A stretch of 64,000 nt of DNA from the NCBI GenBank assembly GCA_048937405.1, contig JBHLNF010000007.1, forward strand, positions 1-64,000. Reading direction: 5' to 3'. Both the position numbers and the translations under genes were made by a program. The notes under the pieces were generated by a model. It worked only from the letters and a program-made list of their open reading frames with translations. It was not told where the DNA came from and did no database searches. Origin of the DNA: Promethearchaeota archaeon (GTDB lineage Archaea > Asgardarchaeota > Lokiarchaeia > Sigyniarchaeales > SOKP01). Every line of letters begins with the position of its first letter. Within the stretch, counting starts at the first letter, position 1. Positions 1 through 47,279 of this stretch are shown piece after piece.

Positions 1-65
1 TAAGAGTCCCTATCGACCTCGTGGCTTGCTTCCTCGATGTCGGCTCTTCCTATCCTGGAGGCGCA

Positions 66-96
66 CATATCGGATTCGACAGACGATCCGAGCGCA
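66..96 (+). other. About 30-nt insertion (intron or expansion) in 23S helix 91
   Basis: 48 nt between CCT and AAGGG where E. coli has 18; insert contains a TCGGAT/ATCCGA hairpin flanked by GCGCA direct repeats. Confidence 0.75.
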
Positions 97-352
97 GAAC
101 CTCCAAGGGTGGGGCTGTACGCCCATTAAAAGGGAACGTGAGCTGGGTTTAGACCGACGTGAGTCAGGTCGGATTCTATCTACTGGGTTTGTAGGTTGAC
201 TGAGGGTAAGGGAAAATCAGTACGAGAGGAACATTTTGCCGGCGCCTCTAGTGTACCGGTTATCTGACAAGGTATTGCCGGGCAGCCACGCGCTAATGGA
301 TAAGTGCTGAAAGCATCTAAGCACGAAGCCAAACCTGAAAATAGTCAGCCAA

Positions 353-519
353 TCTCGTATAGCGTGTGTTGAGAAACGTAATGAGTATTTATGTTGGTGT
401 GAGATAGTAAGGTTCACCTGTGAGAACCAGAAGCCATCTTTACAAAAAGCCATAATGTAAATGTGAGGGACGTTGATTAACGAGATCAGGGCACGGTGAC
501 GTGAACTGAGTATGCGAGA
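353..519 (+). other. Supersized expansion segment ES39 (H98 region) of 23S rRNA
   Basis: About 165 nt between H97 and H99/100, closed by a TCTCGTATA/TATGCGAGA stem. Confidence 0.85.
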
Positions 520-547
520 CGAGTGCACCCGTATAAGACGGGGTTAG

Positions 548-745
548 TGAGGTGGGGGTGTACGTAGGGAGCTTTCGGGCGACCTATTTAGCCCGCCACT
601 CTCAATAGCACGAGTGTGTGGTGTTGAAAAAGGAACCATAAGGTTCAGGCTTAGAGTATAAGGGTAAAAGAAGTGTATCTGGAACGATAAAGTCTGGCTG
701 GTTTGAGATGAGAAGGGATGGAGTATGTTCTTGAGCAGAATTTTT
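548..745 (+). repeat. Repeat R1: native 23S 3' end plus trailer
   Basis: Direct-repeat partner of 5197-5400, 6037-6134 and weakly 8027-8100; core GTATGTTCTTGAGC at 723-736. Confidence 0.9.
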
Positions 746-961
746 TCTTTTATTTTTTGATTTGTTAAAATGAGGAATGTCTTATGCAATGTTTTTTACT
801 TTCATTTCTTTCTTTAGAAATATTAAATTTACAAAAACCAACGATAAGATTTTTTCCAAATCGTTTAAAGTCATTGAAAATATTAACCAGTAATTAATTT
901 GAAAAACATTTTTTTTAATTTTTAAATTATTAAAAAAAAAAGAACTCACTCCTAAGTGAGT

Positions 962-3900
962 TTACTTAATAGACTTTTTTCTCAAATACTTTCTAAAGTA
1001 TGAAACAATACCAATGGAGACAATGCCAATAACAATAATTAGAGAATATCCAGGGACTGCAAGTTGATCTGTTTTAGGAGATACTAATAATATAGTATCA
1101 AATATTGTAATTTCTGACTCTAAACCTGCAGAATCTTTATATTTAACGAAGATCATCTTTTCCCCAAGTTCAGAGGAGAAAGTAAACAATTTTGTATTGC
1201 TAAAAGGCTCCCATTCTGTCCATTCGACACCATCAGTACTAAATTTCATTTCTATCACATCATTTGCATCTGATGCGGTAAGATTTAACATAACTTGAGT
1301 AGAAGTGGTTGAAACTTCGCCGTTATTAATGAGAATTGTACCCGTAGGAGGAATTCTGTCTAAAATAATTGAATCGTTAATTGAAACACTCGATGTTCTT
1401 CCAACTCCATCTTTAAACTGAACATAAACTGTTTGCTCTCCATCATTATTATATAGATTAAAAGATTTTGTTGTTGCATATGTTTCCCAATCAGTCCATA
1501 GCATTTTATCATAACTGAACCTCATTTGGCTTATACCATTAACATCAATACCCTCTATAGTTAGAGATACACCGATGTTGGTTGTATATGAATCATCATC
1601 ATTTATGCTGAGTGAGCCAGTTGGTAATTCTGTATCGAGAATTATATCATCATAGAATACGAAAGAGATGAGATCATTTTGATCTTTAAACTTTATATAT
1701 ACTGTTTTTACTCCATCAATGTCTATAAGAACATAATCTTTTAGTGATGTATAAGTTTCCCAAAGGGACCAAGTTTGGTTATCATTACTAAAGCACATTT
1801 CCGTTGCTGTTGAGCAAGTAATATCTAACGCCACCAAAGTAGAGGTTGTATAAACATCTCCGTTGTTTATTTCAATCGATCCCCATGGTAAAGTAGTATA
1901 TACTGAGAATGCATAATCATTTGTGTCGGAACTCTCTCCTCCAAATCCATCATGGGCTATAACCTGAATATATACTGAATTAGAATCACTTATACCGCTC
2001 AAATCCCAGTCGTACTGAGTGTTGGTGACTCCCGCTACTATAAGATGCCATCCAGTATTTTCTACATTATAAAACAGATCATAGCTTAACACATCATCAT
2101 CAGAATCATTAGCATTCCATGTTAATAGAAATGGACCACTAATTACTTCTCCACCATTCGGACTTGTAATTGTAATCTCGGGATCCCTATTTATTACGGT
2201 ATATGAAAAGAAATTATCATTTTCATCTCTTCGGATGGTGAAGTGATTCTCATCAAAAGCATAAAGAGACCAGAGCACAGTTGTACCATGTTCTTGGACA
2301 GGAATAGTTCCCTGCCAGGTTCCCGGATTCCCCACTTGCTCTATTAAAGGACGAGTATCCCAGTTATTTCCTGCATTAGTAGAAAAATTGATAAATGCAT
2401 CCATAATCATTCCCTCATCGATAATATCAATGGATATGTCCACCTCATCATCTTCGGTTTTCTCAAGCCCATCCCCATTAGTATCATAATTAACATTAAG
2501 CGACTCCAAAGGTATCTCTGGTGGTACATAGTCAATGGTGCCATGCTCTAAAGGATTTGAAGTTTCTGTAGTGTCATAATGGGTTCGAAATACATAGGTG
2601 CCAAATACTGGATCTCTACCGATATCCATTGATAATTGATCACTTCCTTCATTATCATGGATATTATAATCAGTGGCGATCCATTGACCTACTGATTCTT
2701 CTTCATAGTTCTGTTCTTGCATAGTAATCTCAATTTTTCCCCCCATACTAAAGAAAGAATAACCTATTGAGGCTTGAGCTGATTTTGAAACTTCTATCAT
2801 AATTTTTTTGGTTCTAGCTTCTAAAGTTGAAATTTGCTCCCCTTCCATAATCTCAGGGCTGCCTTTCACCAGCACGGTTCGGAAGAAGCTTACGTCCTGA
2901 TAATTGTTATATAAAACACTTTGATTCGCCCATTCATCAGGTAAATTAGGAGCACTAGCAGGATAAAATGCTTCACCTGTTCGATTTATTCCATAGAAAA
3001 GCATTGTATTATTATGTACTGTACCATTGTAATAAGTCCTAACGTAATTTCGTAGTTCCCATCTAAACCACCAAGCTTCCCCCCAAAAGATATCACCATA
3101 ACCTGGGCCTATATAATCTGGGTCATTGGATGACGTACTGGAGGATAATGAGCTAAGAGTACTTATTTCATACCTGAAATCATATCCCACCATCGTAGTT
3201 TGTTTTTTTTCCAGAGATGCAGAAGCACCAAATCCTATACCACACAAGCCAAAATCTACTCCAACTTCTAGTTGACCAGAGATACCATTGGTCACAGAAC
3301 AACCAATACCCATCGACATCGTTGAACCAGAAGAGAATTTGGAAGTGCTATCATCTCCGCTAGGGTCGTATAGTATCATATGCAGATGGTTTCCGATTAT
3401 AGTGGTGTTTGAGTCTAATATATAATCAACATTACTAGTGATTTTACTGAAAAAGAAATTTCGAGATACATTCGCAAGTTGAACATCATTCCAATAACCT
3501 ACTAAATAAGCTGTAATGTATCCATCAAACCTATTATCGTAATTGATTATTTCATATTGATATTCACCAGATAGATCCCAAACATTCCCACATGGAGTAA
3601 TTTCAGTTCCATTGTTAACATAAAGATCTACCCTATTAATATCTCCATATACATAACTGAAATTAAAATAGATATGAGAACTCGCAGGAAATATAATCTG
3701 AGTATTATTCGAGGGAGTTCCCCACTTTAATTGAACATGCGACTTATCAATAACTATTCCAGGTGATGTATTTGTGGTTTCACTATTCCCTGCATTATCA
3801 ACTGCGTAATATTCTAGGTACGTCGTACCTTCATAATTTATTGTTACTGTGGCTTGAAGCCCAGGATCGTGGACCCATGATTGATGGATACCGTCTTCCA

Positions 3901-5032
3901 CTTTACGATATACAATTTCGTTAACACCTGATGTACTATCAGTAGCAGATAATTCGATTGTTACATCATCAATATACCATGTTCCATTACCATGAGTACC
4001 AGTAATACTATCTATAACACTATTTGGATTTTGAGTGTCGATTTTAAAAGAATCTGTATTTGTGTATTGTTCATCATATCCTTGTCTGTCTCTACAGTAG
4101 TATGTAATATCTGTAACCCCTTCTGTGCTGAAATATTGTTCCATTTCAAACGGAGGATCACCGCAAGAGTGGCTGTCCCATGATCCAGAGCCTTCTTTAT
4201 AATAGATGGTTGCAACACCCGCATACGGACTATACCCATAAGCATCATCTGTAGCAAAGTCATTTGCTGTGATTTTATATCTCAAATTAGCAGTATCAGT
4301 ATACCATCCTGAAGAGCCTAGGGATCCTCCTAATTTACTCATACTTGAAAGAGGTCGATCATAGAAAATAGATCTAAACGCTTGATATAAACTTCCTGAT
4401 CCATATTCCCAATATTGATCAAGAGAAGATGCAATAAAAGAATTTATATCATTATATTCAACTGGGCCATAATCCACATATTCTCTATGGGTTTTTACGA
4501 CCAATCTACATAAATCTTCGCTATAAGCATTTGCTCCTCCCGATGAGTGATCATTTAAATTGATAACACAAATTCCATGGTCATTATTTATTCCTGGTTC
4601 TCCAAAATCAAAATCATCATTCGCATGCTCATCAAAAGATTCTGTATATTCAGTTCCTCCATTATAACTCCAGCTGAAACTATCCAGGGTCCAAGTATCC
4701 CAACCTCCTCCAGCAGAATTGGAAGTAATATAAATCATGTAATCTGGCTCAAAATCACAATACCTAGTCGAAGAACTTGGAGAATTGTCTATAAAATTCC
4801 AAATTTTTACGTTGGTTTTACTGAGAGCTATTAATCTCTTCGAGTCATCATCACCACTTAGACCAGGTGTGTTGGATTCCCAGTCAAAAACATGAGCAGC
4901 AGTATTTAATCCCTCAAAATTATCTTCTACTACCTTTGTATCTTTCATTAAAGAATGTTTAAATGGTGTAAATAATAAGCCAGATAAGAAAGAAAAAATA
5001 AATACTACACATATTATATTTCTATTTTTCAT
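962..5032 (-). CDS. Large cell-surface protein with Ig-like repeats and Loki-CTERM-type sorting signal
   Basis: N-terminal signal peptide; D-x-x-SGV..YYAVDNAGN Ig modules; three PxGSIxINxG repeats; C-terminal VPGY-hydrophobic-RKYLRKK. Confidence 0.9.
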   Translation of the reverse strand: MKNRNIICVVFIFSFLSGLLFTPFKHSLMKDTKVVEDNFEGLNTAAHVFDWESNTPGLSGDDDSKRLIALSKTNVKIWNFIDNSPSSSTRYCDFEPDYMIYITSNSAGGGWDTWTLDSFSWSYNGGTEYTESFDEHANDDFDFGEPGINNDHGICVINLNDHSSGGANAYSEDLCRLVVKTHREYVDYGPVEYNDINSFIASSLDQYWEYGSGSLYQAFRSIFYDRPLSSMSKLGGSLGSSGWYTDTANLRYKITANDFATDDAYGYSPYAGVATIYYKEGSGSWDSHSCGDPPFEMEQYFSTEGVTDITYYCRDRQGYDEQYTNTDSFKIDTQNPNSVIDSITGTHGNGTWYIDDVTIELSATDSTSGVNEIVYRKVEDGIHQSWVHDPGLQATVTINYEGTTYLEYYAVDNAGNSETTNTSPGIVIDKSHVQLKWGTPSNNTQIIFPASSHIYFNFSYVYGDINRVDLYVNNGTEITPCGNVWDLSGEYQYEIINYDNRFDGYITAYLVGYWNDVQLANVSRNFFFSKITSNVDYILDSNTTIIGNHLHMILYDPSGDDSTSKFSSGSTMSMGIGCSVTNGISGQLEVGVDFGLCGIGFGASASLEKKQTTMVGYDFRYEISTLSSLSSSTSSNDPDYIGPGYGDIFWGEAWWFRWELRNYVRTYYNGTVHNNTMLFYGINRTGEAFYPASAPNLPDEWANQSVLYNNYQDVSFFRTVLVKGSPEIMEGEQISTLEARTKKIMIEVSKSAQASIGYSFFSMGGKIEITMQEQNYEEESVGQWIATDYNIHDNEGSDQLSMDIGRDPVFGTYVFRTHYDTTETSNPLEHGTIDYVPPEIPLESLNVNYDTNGDGLEKTEDDEVDISIDIIDEGMIMDAFINFSTNAGNNWDTRPLIEQVGNPGTWQGTIPVQEHGTTVLWSLYAFDENHFTIRRDENDNFFSYTVINRDPEITITSPNGGEVISGPFLLTWNANDSDDDVLSYDLFYNVENTGWHLIVAGVTNTQYDWDLSGISDSNSVYIQVIAHDGFGGESSDTNDYAFSVYTTLPWGSIEINNGDVYTTSTLVALDITCSTATEMCFSNDNQTWSLWETYTSLKDYVLIDIDGVKTVYIKFKDQNDLISFVFYDDIILDTELPTGSLSINDDDSYTTNIGVSLTIEGIDVNGISQMRFSYDKMLWTDWETYATTKSFNLYNNDGEQTVYVQFKDGVGRTSSVSINDSIILDRIPPTGTILINNGEVSTTSTQVMLNLTASDANDVIEMKFSTDGVEWTEWEPFSNTKLFTFSSELGEKMIFVKYKDSAGLESEITIFDTILLVSPKTDQLAVPGYSLIIVIGIVSIGIVSYFRKYLRKKSIK

Positions 5033-5196
5033 TATATTTCATCATTTTTACATTGAATTTTCGTTAAAAGATTTCTTTTATTTCTTAATTTTCAGAATTA
5101 TTTAAAATTTATGATATTGAATCTTTTTATAATCTATTTTTTTCTTTAGGATTAGTTTTTCATATTTAATTATTTCCAAGAGATAAACAGGTATAT

Positions 5197-5400
5197 TGAG
5201 GTTGAGGTGTACGTAGGGAGCTTCCGGGCGACCTACTTAGCCCGTCAATCTCAATAGCACGAGTGTATGGTGCTGAAAGAGGAACCATAAGGTTCAGGCT
5301 TAGAGTATAAGGGTAATAAGTGTATGCGGAGCGATAAAGATTAGATAATTTGATATGAGAAGGGATGGAGTATGTTCTTGAGCTAAGATTTTATTTTTTT
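5197..5400 (+). repeat. Repeat R2: diverged copy of 23S 3' end (H101) plus trailer
   Basis: About 9 mismatches over the first ~120 nt versus 548-667; similarity continues to GTATGTTCTTGAGC at 5370-5383. Confidence 0.95.
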
Positions 5401-5491
5401 CAATATTCTAAAGAGAATTTGTTTCTAGAGATAATATTTAAAAATACAAAAAACCTTTTTTTTAGATATAAATTCAAAAAATCAATTGTTT

Positions 5492-6013
5492 ATGCTTTCA
5501 AAGAGACAGTTAGGTTTTATTATTTTAATCATATGTGTCATAGCATTTATAACAATTCCAGTTGCTATAATTGTGATGGTGAATCTTAAAGATTCTAATT
5601 CAAATCCTAAATGGGATTATTATGTTGAACCAGGTATATATACTGCGCAAGAAGAGATTCATGAAGGAAATATTATATATACTTTATGGACATACATTTA
5701 TCGTGATTTTATGCCAATTTCTCCTCCTGGTGGGAAACCTTTAATTGCGGGTATAAGAGTATATGCTAATAATGTAGAAGATTTTCCCTTAACAACTAAG
5801 ATTGAGCGTTTGTGGATAATTGATGGATCAAAAATAAAATCGACATTAGCTACGGATGAAGTTAGCATAGATGGATCTATATATGAGATGGTTTTTCGAG
5901 ATGGTCCGAAATGGGGACCTGGGTTCGAAATTGATGTTGTGGTGAAATTAAACTCAAGTTTAAATATTTATTATATCAAAGCTATTAATCAGTACATTCA
6001 TGCAACATTTTAA
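5492..6013 (+). CDS. Membrane-anchored hypothetical protein
   Basis: Single N-terminal TM helix, then a soluble domain (RDFMPISPPGGKPL); ATG at 5492 preferred. Confidence 0.8.
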   Translation: MLSKRQLGFIILIICVIAFITIPVAIIVMVNLKDSNSNPKWDYYVEPGIYTAQEEIHEGNIIYTLWTYIYRDFMPISPPGGKPLIAGIRVYANNVEDFPLTTKIERLWIIDGSKIKSTLATDEVSIDGSIYEMVFRDGPKWGPGFEIDVVVKLNSSLNIYYIKAINQYIHATF

Positions 6014-6036
6014 TTAGGTTTATTGTTAGATTTATT

Positions 6037-6134
6037 TATAAGGATTAATATAAGATATCCAGATTGGCAAAGATTAGACATCTTGAAATGAGAACAATTG
6101 GATTTTGTATGTTCTTGAGCTAAGATTTTATTTT
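6037..6134 (+). repeat. Repeat R3: decayed copy of rRNA trailer
   Basis: 28-nt exact match to R2 (GTATGTTCTTGAGCTAAGATTTTATTTT) plus upstream AAAGATTAGA and TGA.ATGAGAA. Confidence 0.85.
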
Positions 6135-6302
6135 AATATTAATTTTTTAATGAAAGGGCAAATTCACAGTCTGATTTTAATAAAAATTTAGTGGACAATT
6201 CCAATCAAAAAAAATAGGGAGAATAAAAAAGTACATGATAAACTAATTATTCAATATTTAGATTCTCGCTCGTTGTTTTTTTTTTCTATTGGCTTTATAC
6301 TA

Positions 6303-7169
6303 TTATAACATATCAGAAAAAAGGTTATTTTTTATTCTTTTCCCCGTTTTAGTTGCTGCTATTCCGCCTTTTCCCGTCTCTTTCAATTCATATGGTAATT
6401 TACGACCAACTTTCATCATAGCATCCACAACTTCATCTGCGGGGATAATAGAGGTAACTCCTGATAATGCCATTTCAGCAGCTAAAAATGCGTTAACCAC
6501 CCCTATAGCATTCCTTTTAATGCATGGTGAGATTACTAATCCAGCAACAGGATCACAAACAAGACCTAATAGGTTTTTTAATGTTAATGCAATCGCATTG
6601 TCTATCTGAAGATGGGTTCCCCCAGCCATATAAGTTATCGCCGCTGCCGCCATTGCAGAAGCAACTCCAATTTCAGCTTGACAACCTCCTTCACTTCCTG
6701 AAAGCATTGCCTTATTTCCAATAATTGCACCTATTGCTGCAGCAACGACTAACGCATTTAAAATATCATCATCCGATTTATTAAGGATTTCTTTAGCTTT
6801 AAAAAGAACAGCAGGTAGAGTTCCAGAAGAACCTGCTGTGGGACAAGCAACAATTAATCCCATACCACTATTATATTCACCGATAGCCATTGCCCAGCCT
6901 ACGGCTTCTTTTAAATTATTTCCATAGAAAATTCCTGGTGAAAGCATTCTTTTTGCCTGATGGCTTGCTTCTTTGATAGGCAATTCAATATCACTTTCAA
7001 GTGCTTTTTCAAGTGACTGTTTCATTATACTTAAAGATTTATTAAGTTTTTCAATTATAATCTGCTTAGGAATATTGTGAAATTCCATTTCATCGTTTAT
7101 TATTAAATCATGTAATGGAATCCCTTTTGTTTTAGATTCATTGAGGAGATTAGAAATTGATTCAAACAT
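6303..7169 (-). CDS. sdaAA: L-serine dehydratase, Fe-S dependent, alpha subunit
   Basis: ACPTAGSSG, GGCQAEIG, LGLVCDPVAGLV..PC motifs. Confidence 0.95.
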   Translation of the reverse strand: MFESISNLLNESKTKGIPLHDLIINDEMEFHNIPKQIIIEKLNKSLSIMKQSLEKALESDIELPIKEASHQAKRMLSPGIFYGNNLKEAVGWAMAIGEYNSGMGLIVACPTAGSSGTLPAVLFKAKEILNKSDDDILNALVVAAAIGAIIGNKAMLSGSEGGCQAEIGVASAMAAAAITYMAGGTHLQIDNAIALTLKNLLGLVCDPVAGLVISPCIKRNAIGVVNAFLAAEMALSGVTSIIPADEVVDAMMKVGRKLPYELKETGKGGIAATKTGKRIKNNLFSDML

Positions 7170-7827
7170 TGATTACCCTCACCCAAATTATTTCTGGATA
7201 TTTTTTTAATGCATCAATTAAATCTTCTGGTATCACTGTATCTGCTTCAAGCCATGTTAAAGCTATCTTTTTTTTCAAATTTCTGGAGATTTTCATCGAT
7301 CCTATATTTAATTTAAATTTTTGAAGTGTATTTGCAATATTTGCAAGTGCCCCAATCTTGTCATGATTTAATATTACTAGCGTATTCGGTTCCCCACCAA
7401 ATCCTGCTTCTAAGCCATCAATTTCTTTGATTATTATATTACCTCCTCCAATTGAAGTACCGATAACATTCATTTTTTCGGATCCATCAATCATATCTAT
7501 GCGAACTGAATTTGGATGGTAATCCACACCTAAATCCACAAGTTCAAATGAATAATCAAGCCCCTCTTTTTCAGCAATTTCAAATGCATTTTTGATCATA
7601 TCATCTTCGGGTGTAAATCCAAGTAGTCCAGCTAAAATTGCGATATCTGTACCATGACCTTTATATGTCTCTGCAAATGAACCATGAAGTCCTATTTTTA
7701 CAGTTTTAGGCTTTTTTCCAAATAATAACCGTGCAACATACGCAATTTGACACGCTCCTGCAGTATGGCTTGAACTTGGTCCAACCATTATATGACCAAT
7801 TACATCAAAGATAGAAGTATATTTCAT
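7162..7827 (-). CDS. sdaAB: L-serine dehydratase beta subunit with ACT domain
   Basis: MVGPSSSHTAGA, GSFAETYKGHGTD, SIGGG; overlaps sdaAA start. Confidence 0.95.
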   Translation of the reverse strand: MKYTSIFDVIGHIMVGPSSSHTAGACQIAYVARLLFGKKPKTVKIGLHGSFAETYKGHGTDIAILAGLLGFTPEDDMIKNAFEIAEKEGLDYSFELVDLGVDYHPNSVRIDMIDGSEKMNVIGTSIGGGNIIIKEIDGLEAGFGGEPNTLVILNHDKIGALANIANTLQKFKLNIGSMKISRNLKKKIALTWLEADTVIPEDLIDALKKYPEIIWVRVINV

Positions 7828-8026
7828 AACTTATTTCAACTCAATGTTATATTTAAATATAAAGAATAATAGAACTATAAGATTATACAATTTTGAGATA
7901 TATTGTCATCGCAATTATGAATTCAATATTTTGATAAATTCGTCTAGGTATATTAAATAAAGGATTTTTTTAAGATTATATAATTTTAGTTAAATTGGCT
8001 GTAGTTTTTTTTGTTTATTTTTGTTT

Positions 8027-8100
8027 GGGAGCAATGATAAGAATAAAAACGAAATGAGACGGACAAAACGAGGTGTAGTATGTTTGTGAGTATAGATTTA
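8027..8100 (+). repeat. Repeat R4: highly decayed copy of rRNA trailer
   Basis: GAAATGAGA shared with R3; GTATGTTTGTGAGTATAGATTT matches the R2/R3 core at 17/22. Confidence 0.5.
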
Positions 8101-8209
8101 ATTATCTTTTTCTTATTTTGTTTGTCTATTTATCCTTATTGTTTAAAAATTTAAGATTCATATGTGATACAATATTATAGATTTCTATAAGAGAGACATA
8201 TGATTCTTT

Positions 8210-8959
8210 ATGCCCATTGACCCTAAACTAGCTGCCACTGTAATTTTGTTATGTGAGAAAGTGCCCGAATTAGAATCTAATGCTGATTGTAAATTTAATG
8301 TGTTCATGGTAAAAAGGCATAAAAATGCAAGATTTATGAGTGAACATCATGTATTTCCTGGTGGTGCGATAGATAAACAAGACTTATCTAAAGAATCAAA
8401 AAAAAGACTAATCGGACTTGATGATAATGTCCTCAGTAATTTAAAAGATGTGCATAAAGATCCATCAATTCTGTGGATAATAGCAATCCGAGAGTTATTT
8501 GAAGAGACGGGAATTTTAATCGCAGGTAATAAAAAGGGAAATTTAATTGGGAACATTGAAAAAATTAACACTAAATTAATGAAATATCAGGGAAAACTTC
8601 AGACAAAAAAAATTACTATGACGGATGTTTTGACTAATGAAAATCTTTATTATACTGCAAATAATCTAAAATATTTCGGACGGTTTATCACTCCTGCTTT
8701 ATCACCTATTCGGTTTGATACTCAATTTTTTATATGTAAATTCCCTCAAAATCAAAGTATAAATTTATTTTATGATGAATTATCAGAGGGTATATGGGGA
8801 TCACCAAGAGAATTGTTAAGTAAATTTAAAAAAAAAGAAATTAAACTAATTTTCCCTCAATATTTCACTTTAAAGCGACTTAAAAAGTTTAAAACCATCC
8901 AAGAAGTATTCGCAAATTCAAAAAGTGTGTCTAGCCGAAATCTATTAAATGATTTCTAA
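8210..8959 (+). CDS. NUDIX hydrolase (NUDT19-like)
   Basis: VFPGG...AIRELFEETG with internal insertion; ITP...RFDTQFF. Confidence 0.9.
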   Translation: MPIDPKLAATVILLCEKVPELESNADCKFNVFMVKRHKNARFMSEHHVFPGGAIDKQDLSKESKKRLIGLDDNVLSNLKDVHKDPSILWIIAIRELFEETGILIAGNKKGNLIGNIEKINTKLMKYQGKLQTKKITMTDVLTNENLYYTANNLKYFGRFITPALSPIRFDTQFFICKFPQNQSINLFYDELSEGIWGSPRELLSKFKKKEIKLIFPQYFTLKRLKKFKTIQEVFANSKSVSSRNLLNDF

Positions 8960-8965
8960 AAAAAG

Positions 8966-9355
8966 TTATGTCATTTGTTTAAATAAAGCTCGAAATTCTT
9001 CCTTTATGGCAGTTAATCCTAAGTTTTCAAGAAGATCTATGGATTTATTACTCAGAGAATAAAAAGAACGAGGTTCAGAACGTTTATAACCTATTCTTTT
9101 CTCATTTTTAATAAAATTTTTTTCTTTAAGGATTTTGAGATGATAATTCAAGTTATTTTCTGGAATTGAAGGTAAAAGTTCCCTTAACTGGCTGAATGAG
9201 AGAGAATCATCACTAGCTAATAAGGTTAGCAAAATTTTATACCGTGTTTTTTCTGAAATAATCTCCAATTCTTTCCTCATATTTTCCATTTTTTTAGGTG
9301 TTTCCAAATCTTTTTCACTCTCATAATTTAAATTTAATTTTTCATCTAGTTCCAT
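8966..9355 (-). CDS. ArsR-family winged-helix regulator
   Basis: TRYKIL...LSFSQL...LNYHLKIL. Confidence 0.85.
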   Translation of the reverse strand: MELDEKLNLNYESEKDLETPKKMENMRKELEIISEKTRYKILLTLLASDDSLSFSQLRELLPSIPENNLNYHLKILKEKNFIKNEKRIGYKRSEPRSFYSLSNKSIDLLENLGLTAIKEEFRALFKQMT

Positions 9356-9388
9356 GTTAAATATGCATAATCAAATATTTAAATTTAA

Positions 9389-9404
9389 CTCAAGATTAAT
9401 TGAG
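9389..9404. promoter_or_regulatory. Palindrome CTCAA-N6-TTGAG, candidate operator
   Basis: Lies between the divergent ArsR and 9481 genes. Confidence 0.4.
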
Positions 9405-9480
9405 GCAATCATTATTAATATATAATAATTTATTACATAAATGAATTTCTAAATTACTTTATATTTTTAGGGAGTGGAGG

Positions 9481-9972
9481 ATGGAAGTTATACATGAACA
9501 TGCATGGGAAGACTTTCTGGAAGAATTTACCAATATTTTTTCAGTATATGATCTGACAAAAAACAAAATCTTTATTTGTGGTTCATATGATGAAGAAACT
9601 TTTGCTACTCTTCAAGAGGTACAAAAAATTGTAAACAATATTGAGAATAACCTAGGATTTTTTGAAAAAGAATTCAGGCGAACTCACATAGAGAATTTAA
9701 TTTTAAAATTTGATCTTATTGCTAAATTTTCGAATGAAATATTAATGATTATAGAACACGATAAAGGCGGTCATATGATCGAAATGGGAATTATCCTGTC
9801 ATTTAGGGAATTTTCTGAAAAGACAAAAGTCTTCGTATTAAGAGATGCGGAAATTACAGAGGTGCTTAAAAGAGGAGGGTTGTTAACACCTTTTTTTAAG
9901 GAAGAAGAAAGCTTATTTTACTTTGAAAATATTGACACCTTGAAAAAACAGGTAAAGAAACTGTATTCTTAA
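9481..9972 (+). CDS. Nucleoside 2-deoxyribosyltransferase-like (NDT/TIR-like) protein
   Basis: IFICGS first strand, GGHMIEMG helix with candidate catalytic Glu; GGAGG SD. Confidence 0.55.
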   Translation: MEVIHEHAWEDFLEEFTNIFSVYDLTKNKIFICGSYDEETFATLQEVQKIVNNIENNLGFFEKEFRRTHIENLILKFDLIAKFSNEILMIIEHDKGGHMIEMGIILSFREFSEKTKVFVLRDAEITEVLKRGGLLTPFFKEEESLFYFENIDTLKKQVKKLYS

Positions 9973-45855: not shown

Positions 45856-45959
45856 CGGGCTATAGGGGAATTGAACCCCTGACCTTTCTTTTTAAGGGAG
45901 AATTTCCCATAAATGTCAGGTTAAAAGCCTGCTGCGCTACCTGCCTGCGCCAATAGCCC
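45856..45959 (-). tRNA. tRNA-Lys(TTT) with 30-nt intron near position 44/45
   Basis: Acceptor GGGCTAT/ATAGCCC, anticodon loop CTTTTAA, T arm AGGGG-TTCAATT-CCCCT; extra hairpin 45885-45914. Confidence 0.9.
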
Positions 45960-47178: not shown

Positions 47179-47279
47179 GCCTCTGTGGCTTAGTGGTATA
47201 GCAACATTCTACATCATCATGATGAAAATGCTAAAGATTCGTAATCTGTAGATCGGGGGTTCGATTCCCCCCAGAGGCT
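47179..47279 (+). tRNA. tRNA-Thr(CGT) with 29-nt intron at 28/29
   Basis: Removing 47206-47234 restores ACAGA-TTCGTAA-TCTGT; BHB AGCA-ACA / TGCT-AAA. Confidence 0.93.

Follow-up and report, generated by a model that had tools for sequence, protein, structure and literature searches.

Cassettes separated by displaced copies of the 23S rRNA 3' end in a Lokiarchaeia genome: an array apparently accreted by ordinary DNA recombination

The window analyzed (64,000 nucleotides, forward strand) is the start of contig JBHLNF010000007.1 (C25) in a 4.47-Mb, 29% GC genome (GCA_048937405.1; G000) of a Promethearchaeota archaeon from Lokiarchaeia, and it opens inside an active 23S rRNA gene, of which the 3' end (1..625, + strand; Rfam archaeal LSU 3' end) lies at the contig start and the 5' part, together with the leader, at the end of contig C3. 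An Rfam search of the genome did not recover its own 23S and 16S genes, these being fragmented or unassembled. The mature 23S end is followed by the active trailer (R1; 626..757, +), and, as the 130 nt past that end pair with the gene's own leader at -113 kcal/mol versus -68+/-6 for shuffled sequences (the pairing was computed for relatives too), the trailer constitutes the 3' arm of the stem at which pre-23S is processed. The base of this stem carries the conserved 17-nt motif GGAGTATGTTCTTGAGC (720-736, +), next to which lies a T-tract, a likely terminator, and the leader pairing explains the conservation of the motif without any recombination site having to be invoked. Positions ~350-480 correspond to a species-variable, long expansion segment of the 23S 3' domain, presumably the ES39 region, just 3' of which most of the long displaced tails start. 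As for the rRNA genes of relatives, approximately 770 nt, probably an rRNA intron, are inserted in the 23S of L130 (G045) and of G047:C34 at the position equivalent to window 163-165, and on G045:C35 the 16S and 23S genes are unlinked (~50 kb apart), with a tRNA after the 16S and a GTTCTT arm in the processing stems of both.

Downstream of this active end, the window contains further copies of the 23S 3' end and of the stem arm that follows it; they lie on the same strand, are truncated on their 5' side and have unrelated cargo between them. The longest of them, R2 (5186..5403, +), is equivalent to the active trailer of the sister species G053 and, over positions 5194-5400, matches 545-751 at 86.6% identity (209 nt, E 8e-66); the approximately nine mismatches originally noted in the first ~120 nt are borne out by exactly nine counted in the first 120 nt. 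R3 (6055..6134, +) is a trailer-only copy, whose 28-nt exact core, as originally noted, does exist, although it is shared with R2, only 14 nt being common with R1. R4 (8027..8105, +), put forward as a weak repeat, is a decayed trailer forming the right end of the third cassette, with a neighbor switch at its motif; taken alone it matches at a mere 71% over 35 nt, and it is considered genuine because its orthologous copies in five relatives keep the motif exactly or with one mismatch. A reversed-sequence control produced no profile match with an E value below 7.

The cargo was found to be as originally described, with one unrelated cassette, in either orientation, per interval and no integrase or transposase within the array. 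Cassette 1 encodes a 1356-aa surface protein (962..5032, - strand) with hydrophobic signal and C-terminal ends and matches to Big_7 and OmpL47-barrel, which has no homologue of more than 40% identity among 53 relatives; it is the newest cassette, being absent between the 23S gene and cassette 2 in G053. Cassette 2 (5486..6013, +) encodes a 175-aa membrane-anchored protein with an N-terminal hydrophobic segment and no family match, and occupies other positions in G044, G045 and G053. Cassette 3 starts with the B element (6153..6187, +), a second dyad repeat unrelated to the tails, and carries sdaAB-sdaAA (6303..7827, -; L-serine dehydratase, SDH beta and alpha chains), which has spread horizontally as a unit. 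Older distal units follow at 8210..9972: a 249-aa ORF (8210-8959; no Pfam or NCBIfam match), the N-terminus of which looks NUDIX-like by eye, and an HTH regulator with a 163-aa ORF, a pair that is flanked by tails in G005, G008 and G045. None of the window cargo is restriction-modification. Much further downstream in the window, Rfam found two tRNA genes of about 100 nt (45856-45959 and 47179-47279), probably intron-containing, that ARAGORN missed.

The motif is not scattered throughout the genome, as a search yielded three exact matches, all of them in the array; beyond it, two clear tail copies and one weak copy were found, all on contig C28. An apparent second 23S gene at C28:150.6 kb was rejected, as it comprises merely 147 nt of rRNA. 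On the same contig, a provirus (L001:200-10900, i.e., C28:140-151 kb; capsid, portal, terminase and tyrosine integrase) adjoins a 275-nt 23S tail, the left end of which cuts a pseudogene related to the 1356-aa protein, and a 1578-aa surface-type gene follows there.

A profile search revealed co-oriented arrays behind the 23S gene in many species of this Lokiarchaeia genus, the largest comprising 13 copies in 18 kb, with cargo that, in line with the expectation of variable cassettes split by the same repeat, differs by species; the arrays grade into backbone common to the species. Relatives with a shared trailer are mostly Promethearchaeota/Lokiarchaeia MAGs (e.g., Loki_b32, Hel_238_bin13 and bin108). 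Self-comparison of 21 other Asgard 23S loci, which are samples and not proofs of absence, showed same-strand copies at six (two from sister genera, two from genomes in a different family of the order and two, with dense arrays, from a distant family), a weak 31-nt case at one and no tail copies at 14. One gap-free, single-contig genome of another family (G038; 4,324,194 bp) has a single trailer copy behind its 23S (L205:5175-5343; 169 nt, 84%). Dispersed copies in G006 and G023 were discounted, as these are N-joined pseudo-chromosomes, and long perfect tails are under-represented in short-read assemblies.

Comparison with G053, the closest relative with an assembled active gene, supports proximal insertion: cassette 2 lies directly behind its 23S and, because R2 corresponds to its active trailer, cassette 1 was inserted in front of cassette 2. 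There are nine pairs in which the active trailer of one species is represented by a displaced copy in another, with the same cassette downstream. Of the original proposal, the serial capture of cargo at the 3' end of the 23S, joined through rRNA sequence, is supported, as are variable cargo in relatives and the push-out of older cassettes. The polarity proposed along with it, the newest cassette being proximal, agrees with the G053 order and the nine pairs but is not supported if taken strictly, since the cassette order is permuted: cassette 2 and then the 249-aa ORF in G053; sda, cassette 2 and the 249-aa ORF in G044; cassette 1, cassette 2, sda and the 249-aa ORF in G000, so that the sda and membrane-protein cassettes stand in opposite orders in the latter two. 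Similarly, repeat length falls with distance in the window, but not in relatives (length versus rank, rho 0.05; no array of at least three copies is monotone), whereas identity at invariant columns does fall with rank (rho -0.43 for 52 copies, which are not independent). Accretion is mainly, but not strictly, proximal.

That the cassettes excise, reorder and transfer as units is indicated by comparative evidence, neither an excised circle nor a within-species empty allele having been seen. In nine other species, for which backbone identity is mostly 72-77%, the sda block is shared at 91-95% identity, and its fourfold-site divergence is 0.10-0.25, versus 0.3-0.66 for backbone genes of more distant species. 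It has its own decayed tail at the right end, where the motif joins it to four different neighbors. Neighbor switches are located at the 17-nt stem motif, with one at the unrelated B repeat instead; left ends of cassettes are less regular, and the B repeat is frequently their start. The B repeat also forms same-strand cassette arrays of its own, of which G000 and G002 each have one behind the thermosome gene; there are 24 copies in the former (places including C28:330.8-342.8 kb, C25:65219 and C25:65858) and at least 32 in the latter.

The left boundaries of the tails are sharp and occur every few nucleotides across profile positions 18-272, with no common motif (some tails reach ~440 nt), and 143 of the 170 copies stop at the T-tract on the right. 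Decay of the 23S part in long copies is mostly G>A and C>T; the motif, with mismatches at 4.2% versus 5.5% for the 23S part, is not clearly better kept, and it is absent from 25 of the 68 long copies. The longest copies are usually nearest to their own active trailer, yet this holds for only 12 of 36 overall, giving no clear donor signal.

The process is not specific to rRNA, because in the same genome approximately 37 protein genes bear a scar of this kind, with one gene end duplicated and cargo in between. A search of all G000 protein genes found 22 relics of 3' ends downstream and two upstream of the intact gene, and, conversely, 15 relics of 5' ends upstream and none downstream (direct orientation, median 174 bp; Fisher p=5e-9 for the mirror pattern). 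They bracket 0.4-12 kb of cargo at conserved genes, among them genes called DinB-like, hdrA, actin-like and UvrA-like, such names having been given by eye from the N-termini (e.g., C25:178744-178954, C19:186867-187167 and C25:215900-215949). About 210 bp at the DinB-like gene, single in four relatives, are duplicated around 3.5 kb in G000, as are about 300 bp at hdrA, single in three relatives, around 3.8 kb. At the DinB-like locus, a true target duplication and a same-species donor are inseparable, because own-lineage changes are common to both copies. The 23S array can, therefore, be viewed as the most extreme instance of something that happens throughout the genome; its product is observed, and the enzymology presumed.

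The explanation that we consider probable, albeit with considerable reservation, is insertion with long target duplication that has been repeated at the anchor with the highest conservation and whose products are reshuffled through homology, i.e., a recombinase-free accretion island that apparently relies on ordinary DNA recombination rather than on a dedicated enzyme. Foreign DNA enters right after the 23S terminator and 20-450 bp of the target are duplicated in the process, so that the 23S gene remains whole and an extra tail stays behind past the cargo, an outcome seen in the sequences. As for the enzymology, this would probably involve a RadA-type homologous pop-in of a circularized fragment carrying the gene end, or, alternatively, homology-anchored insertion with one illegitimate joint. 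The tails then mutate from GC to AT, their sharp, scattered left ends abutting the functional edge of the cargo (later deletion could have scattered them), and their T-tract may act as a cargo terminator. As a cassette ends in a tail, it could pop out and then be reinserted, either at the active trailer or at a different tail, also across species, with the crossover falling in the sole well-conserved stretch, the stem motif; the pattern is seen in the comparisons, and the route is presumed. The 23S end might have become the largest stack because it is 85-98% identical in most species pairs (ordinary backbone DNA is at ~75%) and because its 3' flank was already variable. Some points weigh against this explanation. 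A crossover within ~17-20 bp of identity is short for RadA, and a site-specific recombinase would give the same result; moreover, no copies were found around three 16S genes examined or on the 5' side of the 23S, which are equally conserved, so an extra assumption is needed. DprA is above its cut-off in only two of 31 genomes, which bears on how DNA would enter the cell. A tRNA lies close behind the 16S in G069, and such an arrangement may disfavor insertion there.

A trans-acting site-specific recombinase (XerA or an unrecognized enzyme), using the motif as its core for integron-like insertion and excision, would account for the clustering of neighbor switches at the motif and for the minimal copies consisting of the motif and T-tract, and archaeal XerA is present in approximately 49 of the 54 genomes. 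Nevertheless, neither the motif nor the joints have dyad symmetry, the leader pairing already accounts for motif conservation, trailer sequences differ between array-bearing families, and the long tails with scattered ends, as well as the protein-gene scars, would be left unexplained. Boxes of the attC type occur at one of 155 joints versus two at random, with folding z near 0 except for one weak strand. G000 encodes XerA, RadA and one proviral integrase; no other tyrosine recombinases were found in it (the IntI model TIGR02249 scored far below its cut-off), and 26 tyrosine-recombinase loci were found to have no tail nearby (within 1.5 kb). Such a recombinase is regarded as unlikely, and much the same, with slightly greater doubt, applies to unrecognized dedicated machinery tied to the end of pre-23S transcription or to its processing (e.g., a nick at the terminator or an R-loop), which would capture DNA and recombine cassettes at the stem motif; if true, this would amount to a gene-capture platform of a new class, found in certain Asgard lineages only.

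It is rather improbable that long target duplication serves capture only and that an integrase acting on the B repeat drives much of the cassette traffic. In 25 of 73 cases (the copy at window 6153 is one of them), a B repeat does follow the motif at a distance of no more than 120 nt, mostly 26-55; integrase genes are flanked by B in G059, and B arrays have tails mixed into them; still, R1, R2 and R4 lack it, the B-linked integrase of G059 is absent from G000, and the sda right end switches at the motif, not at B. Even less credence can be given to the tails being attR remnants of integrative elements that target the 23S as others target tRNA genes and whose integrase modules have since been deleted. 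The topology is that of ssrA and tRNA stacks, and one long copy on C28 lies 1.5 kb from the proviral integrase, but 1.1 Mb of array loci contain no other integrase, there is no fixed crossover point, two homologues of the C28 integrase have no tail nearby, and two pattern scans of IMG/VR found no viral contig with 23S-tail patterns.

Very little speaks for RNA-templated copying, which would proceed from the 3' end of the pre-rRNA by reverse transcription or by template switching: the copies do share a 3' end and are 5'-truncated, and co-oriented cargo genes often have their stop right next to the tail (within 60 nt in 57 of 89), yet the genome has no PF00078 reverse transcriptase, cargo is not sense-only (89 left neighbors are sense and 70 antisense, n=159, the antisense genes retaining at least 36 nt of upstream room), and relics of protein-gene 5' ends also occur. 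Misassembly at the rRNA, suggested by the window beginning at a contig break inside the 23S, is the least credible of all, as the copies match at 60-90% identity, not exactly, and the same junctions turn up in species that were assembled independently. Furthermore, the array of G005 is found again, at 98.4% and joined to a complete 23S, on a JGI contig (which may come from the same sample), and G045 has the leader, 23S and array mid-contig.

Among known systems, insertion with long target duplication (Nobusato 2000; Furuta, Abe & Kobayashi 2010, PMC2853133), for which the latter study proposes restriction-modification cargo or a double-strand-break trigger, and which has been suggested for a 21-nt insert within 16S genes of bacteria as well (Lim et al. 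2012, PMC3457768), is similar in its long, variable direct duplication that often spans a gene end, absence of mobile-element genes and empty-site relatives. Here, too, variable direct duplications of more than 30 bp surround inserts of less than 20 kb with no other mobile-element genes in them, and empty-site relatives exist (G053 for cassette 1, and those for the DinB-like and hdrA loci). The known cases, however, are isolated bacterial events with mostly restriction-modification cargo, whereas here up to 13 iterations at one rRNA end carry ordinary accessory cargo, and the duplicates are reused as cross-species exchange joints. Tandem islands at tRNA/tmRNA 3' ends, such as the Dehalococcoides ssrA-GIs (PMC3146451) and tycheposon islands (10.1101/2020.12.28.424599), likewise stack behind a stable-RNA gene, with newcomers pushing older units outward and displaced 3' fragments of the target gene, which in our case are also in direct orientation. 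Such islands, though, have an integrase, a fixed insertion point and a short repeat, in contrast to the array described here, in which left ends are continuous over 18-272 (later deletion being possible), repeats measure 20-450 bp, the anchor is rRNA plus its processing arm, and the only integrase is that of the one provirus near a dispersed copy. With integrons and CALINs, including those of Asgard archaea (Ghaly et al. 2022, PMC9668308), the array has small exchangeable cassettes, a joint at one end of each and reordering in common, so that "integron-like", as it was originally called, holds for the layout alone: there are no attC boxes or fold and no IntI, and cargo lies in both orientations with its upstream regions kept. 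Hotspots free of mobile elements and exchanged by homologous recombination (Oliveira 2017, PMC5635113), as well as the SAR11 O-chain island between the 23S and 5S, for which no repeats are mentioned (10.1101/2024.03.20.585866), resemble it in housekeeping recombination with conserved flanks and rRNA as a boundary, but they exchange between two unique flanks, whereas this array is additive and internally jointed. In other words, the array resembles an accretion island anchored on a tRNA gene in the way it works, and an integron in its layout, and it belongs to neither class.

No description of rRNA-anchored 23S-tail arrays was found in the literature, subscription papers being mostly outside the search; this applies to repeated insertion at one end of an rRNA gene as well as to scars that are used again as cross-species joints. 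Integron and island finders would miss such arrays, as would the 95%/100-bp repeat cut-off of Wu et al. 2022 (PMC8813620), and the tails interrupt short-read assemblies and may be mistaken for additional rRNA fragments; on the other hand, the joint sequences are known, which makes the cargo pool open to PCR or long-read sampling. What would otherwise be a one-off recombination scar becomes a reusable cross-species cassette platform without an integrase, and this offers a concrete path to new accessory genes for the Asgard archaea, a group with genomes known to be mosaic and with poorly understood routes of transfer.
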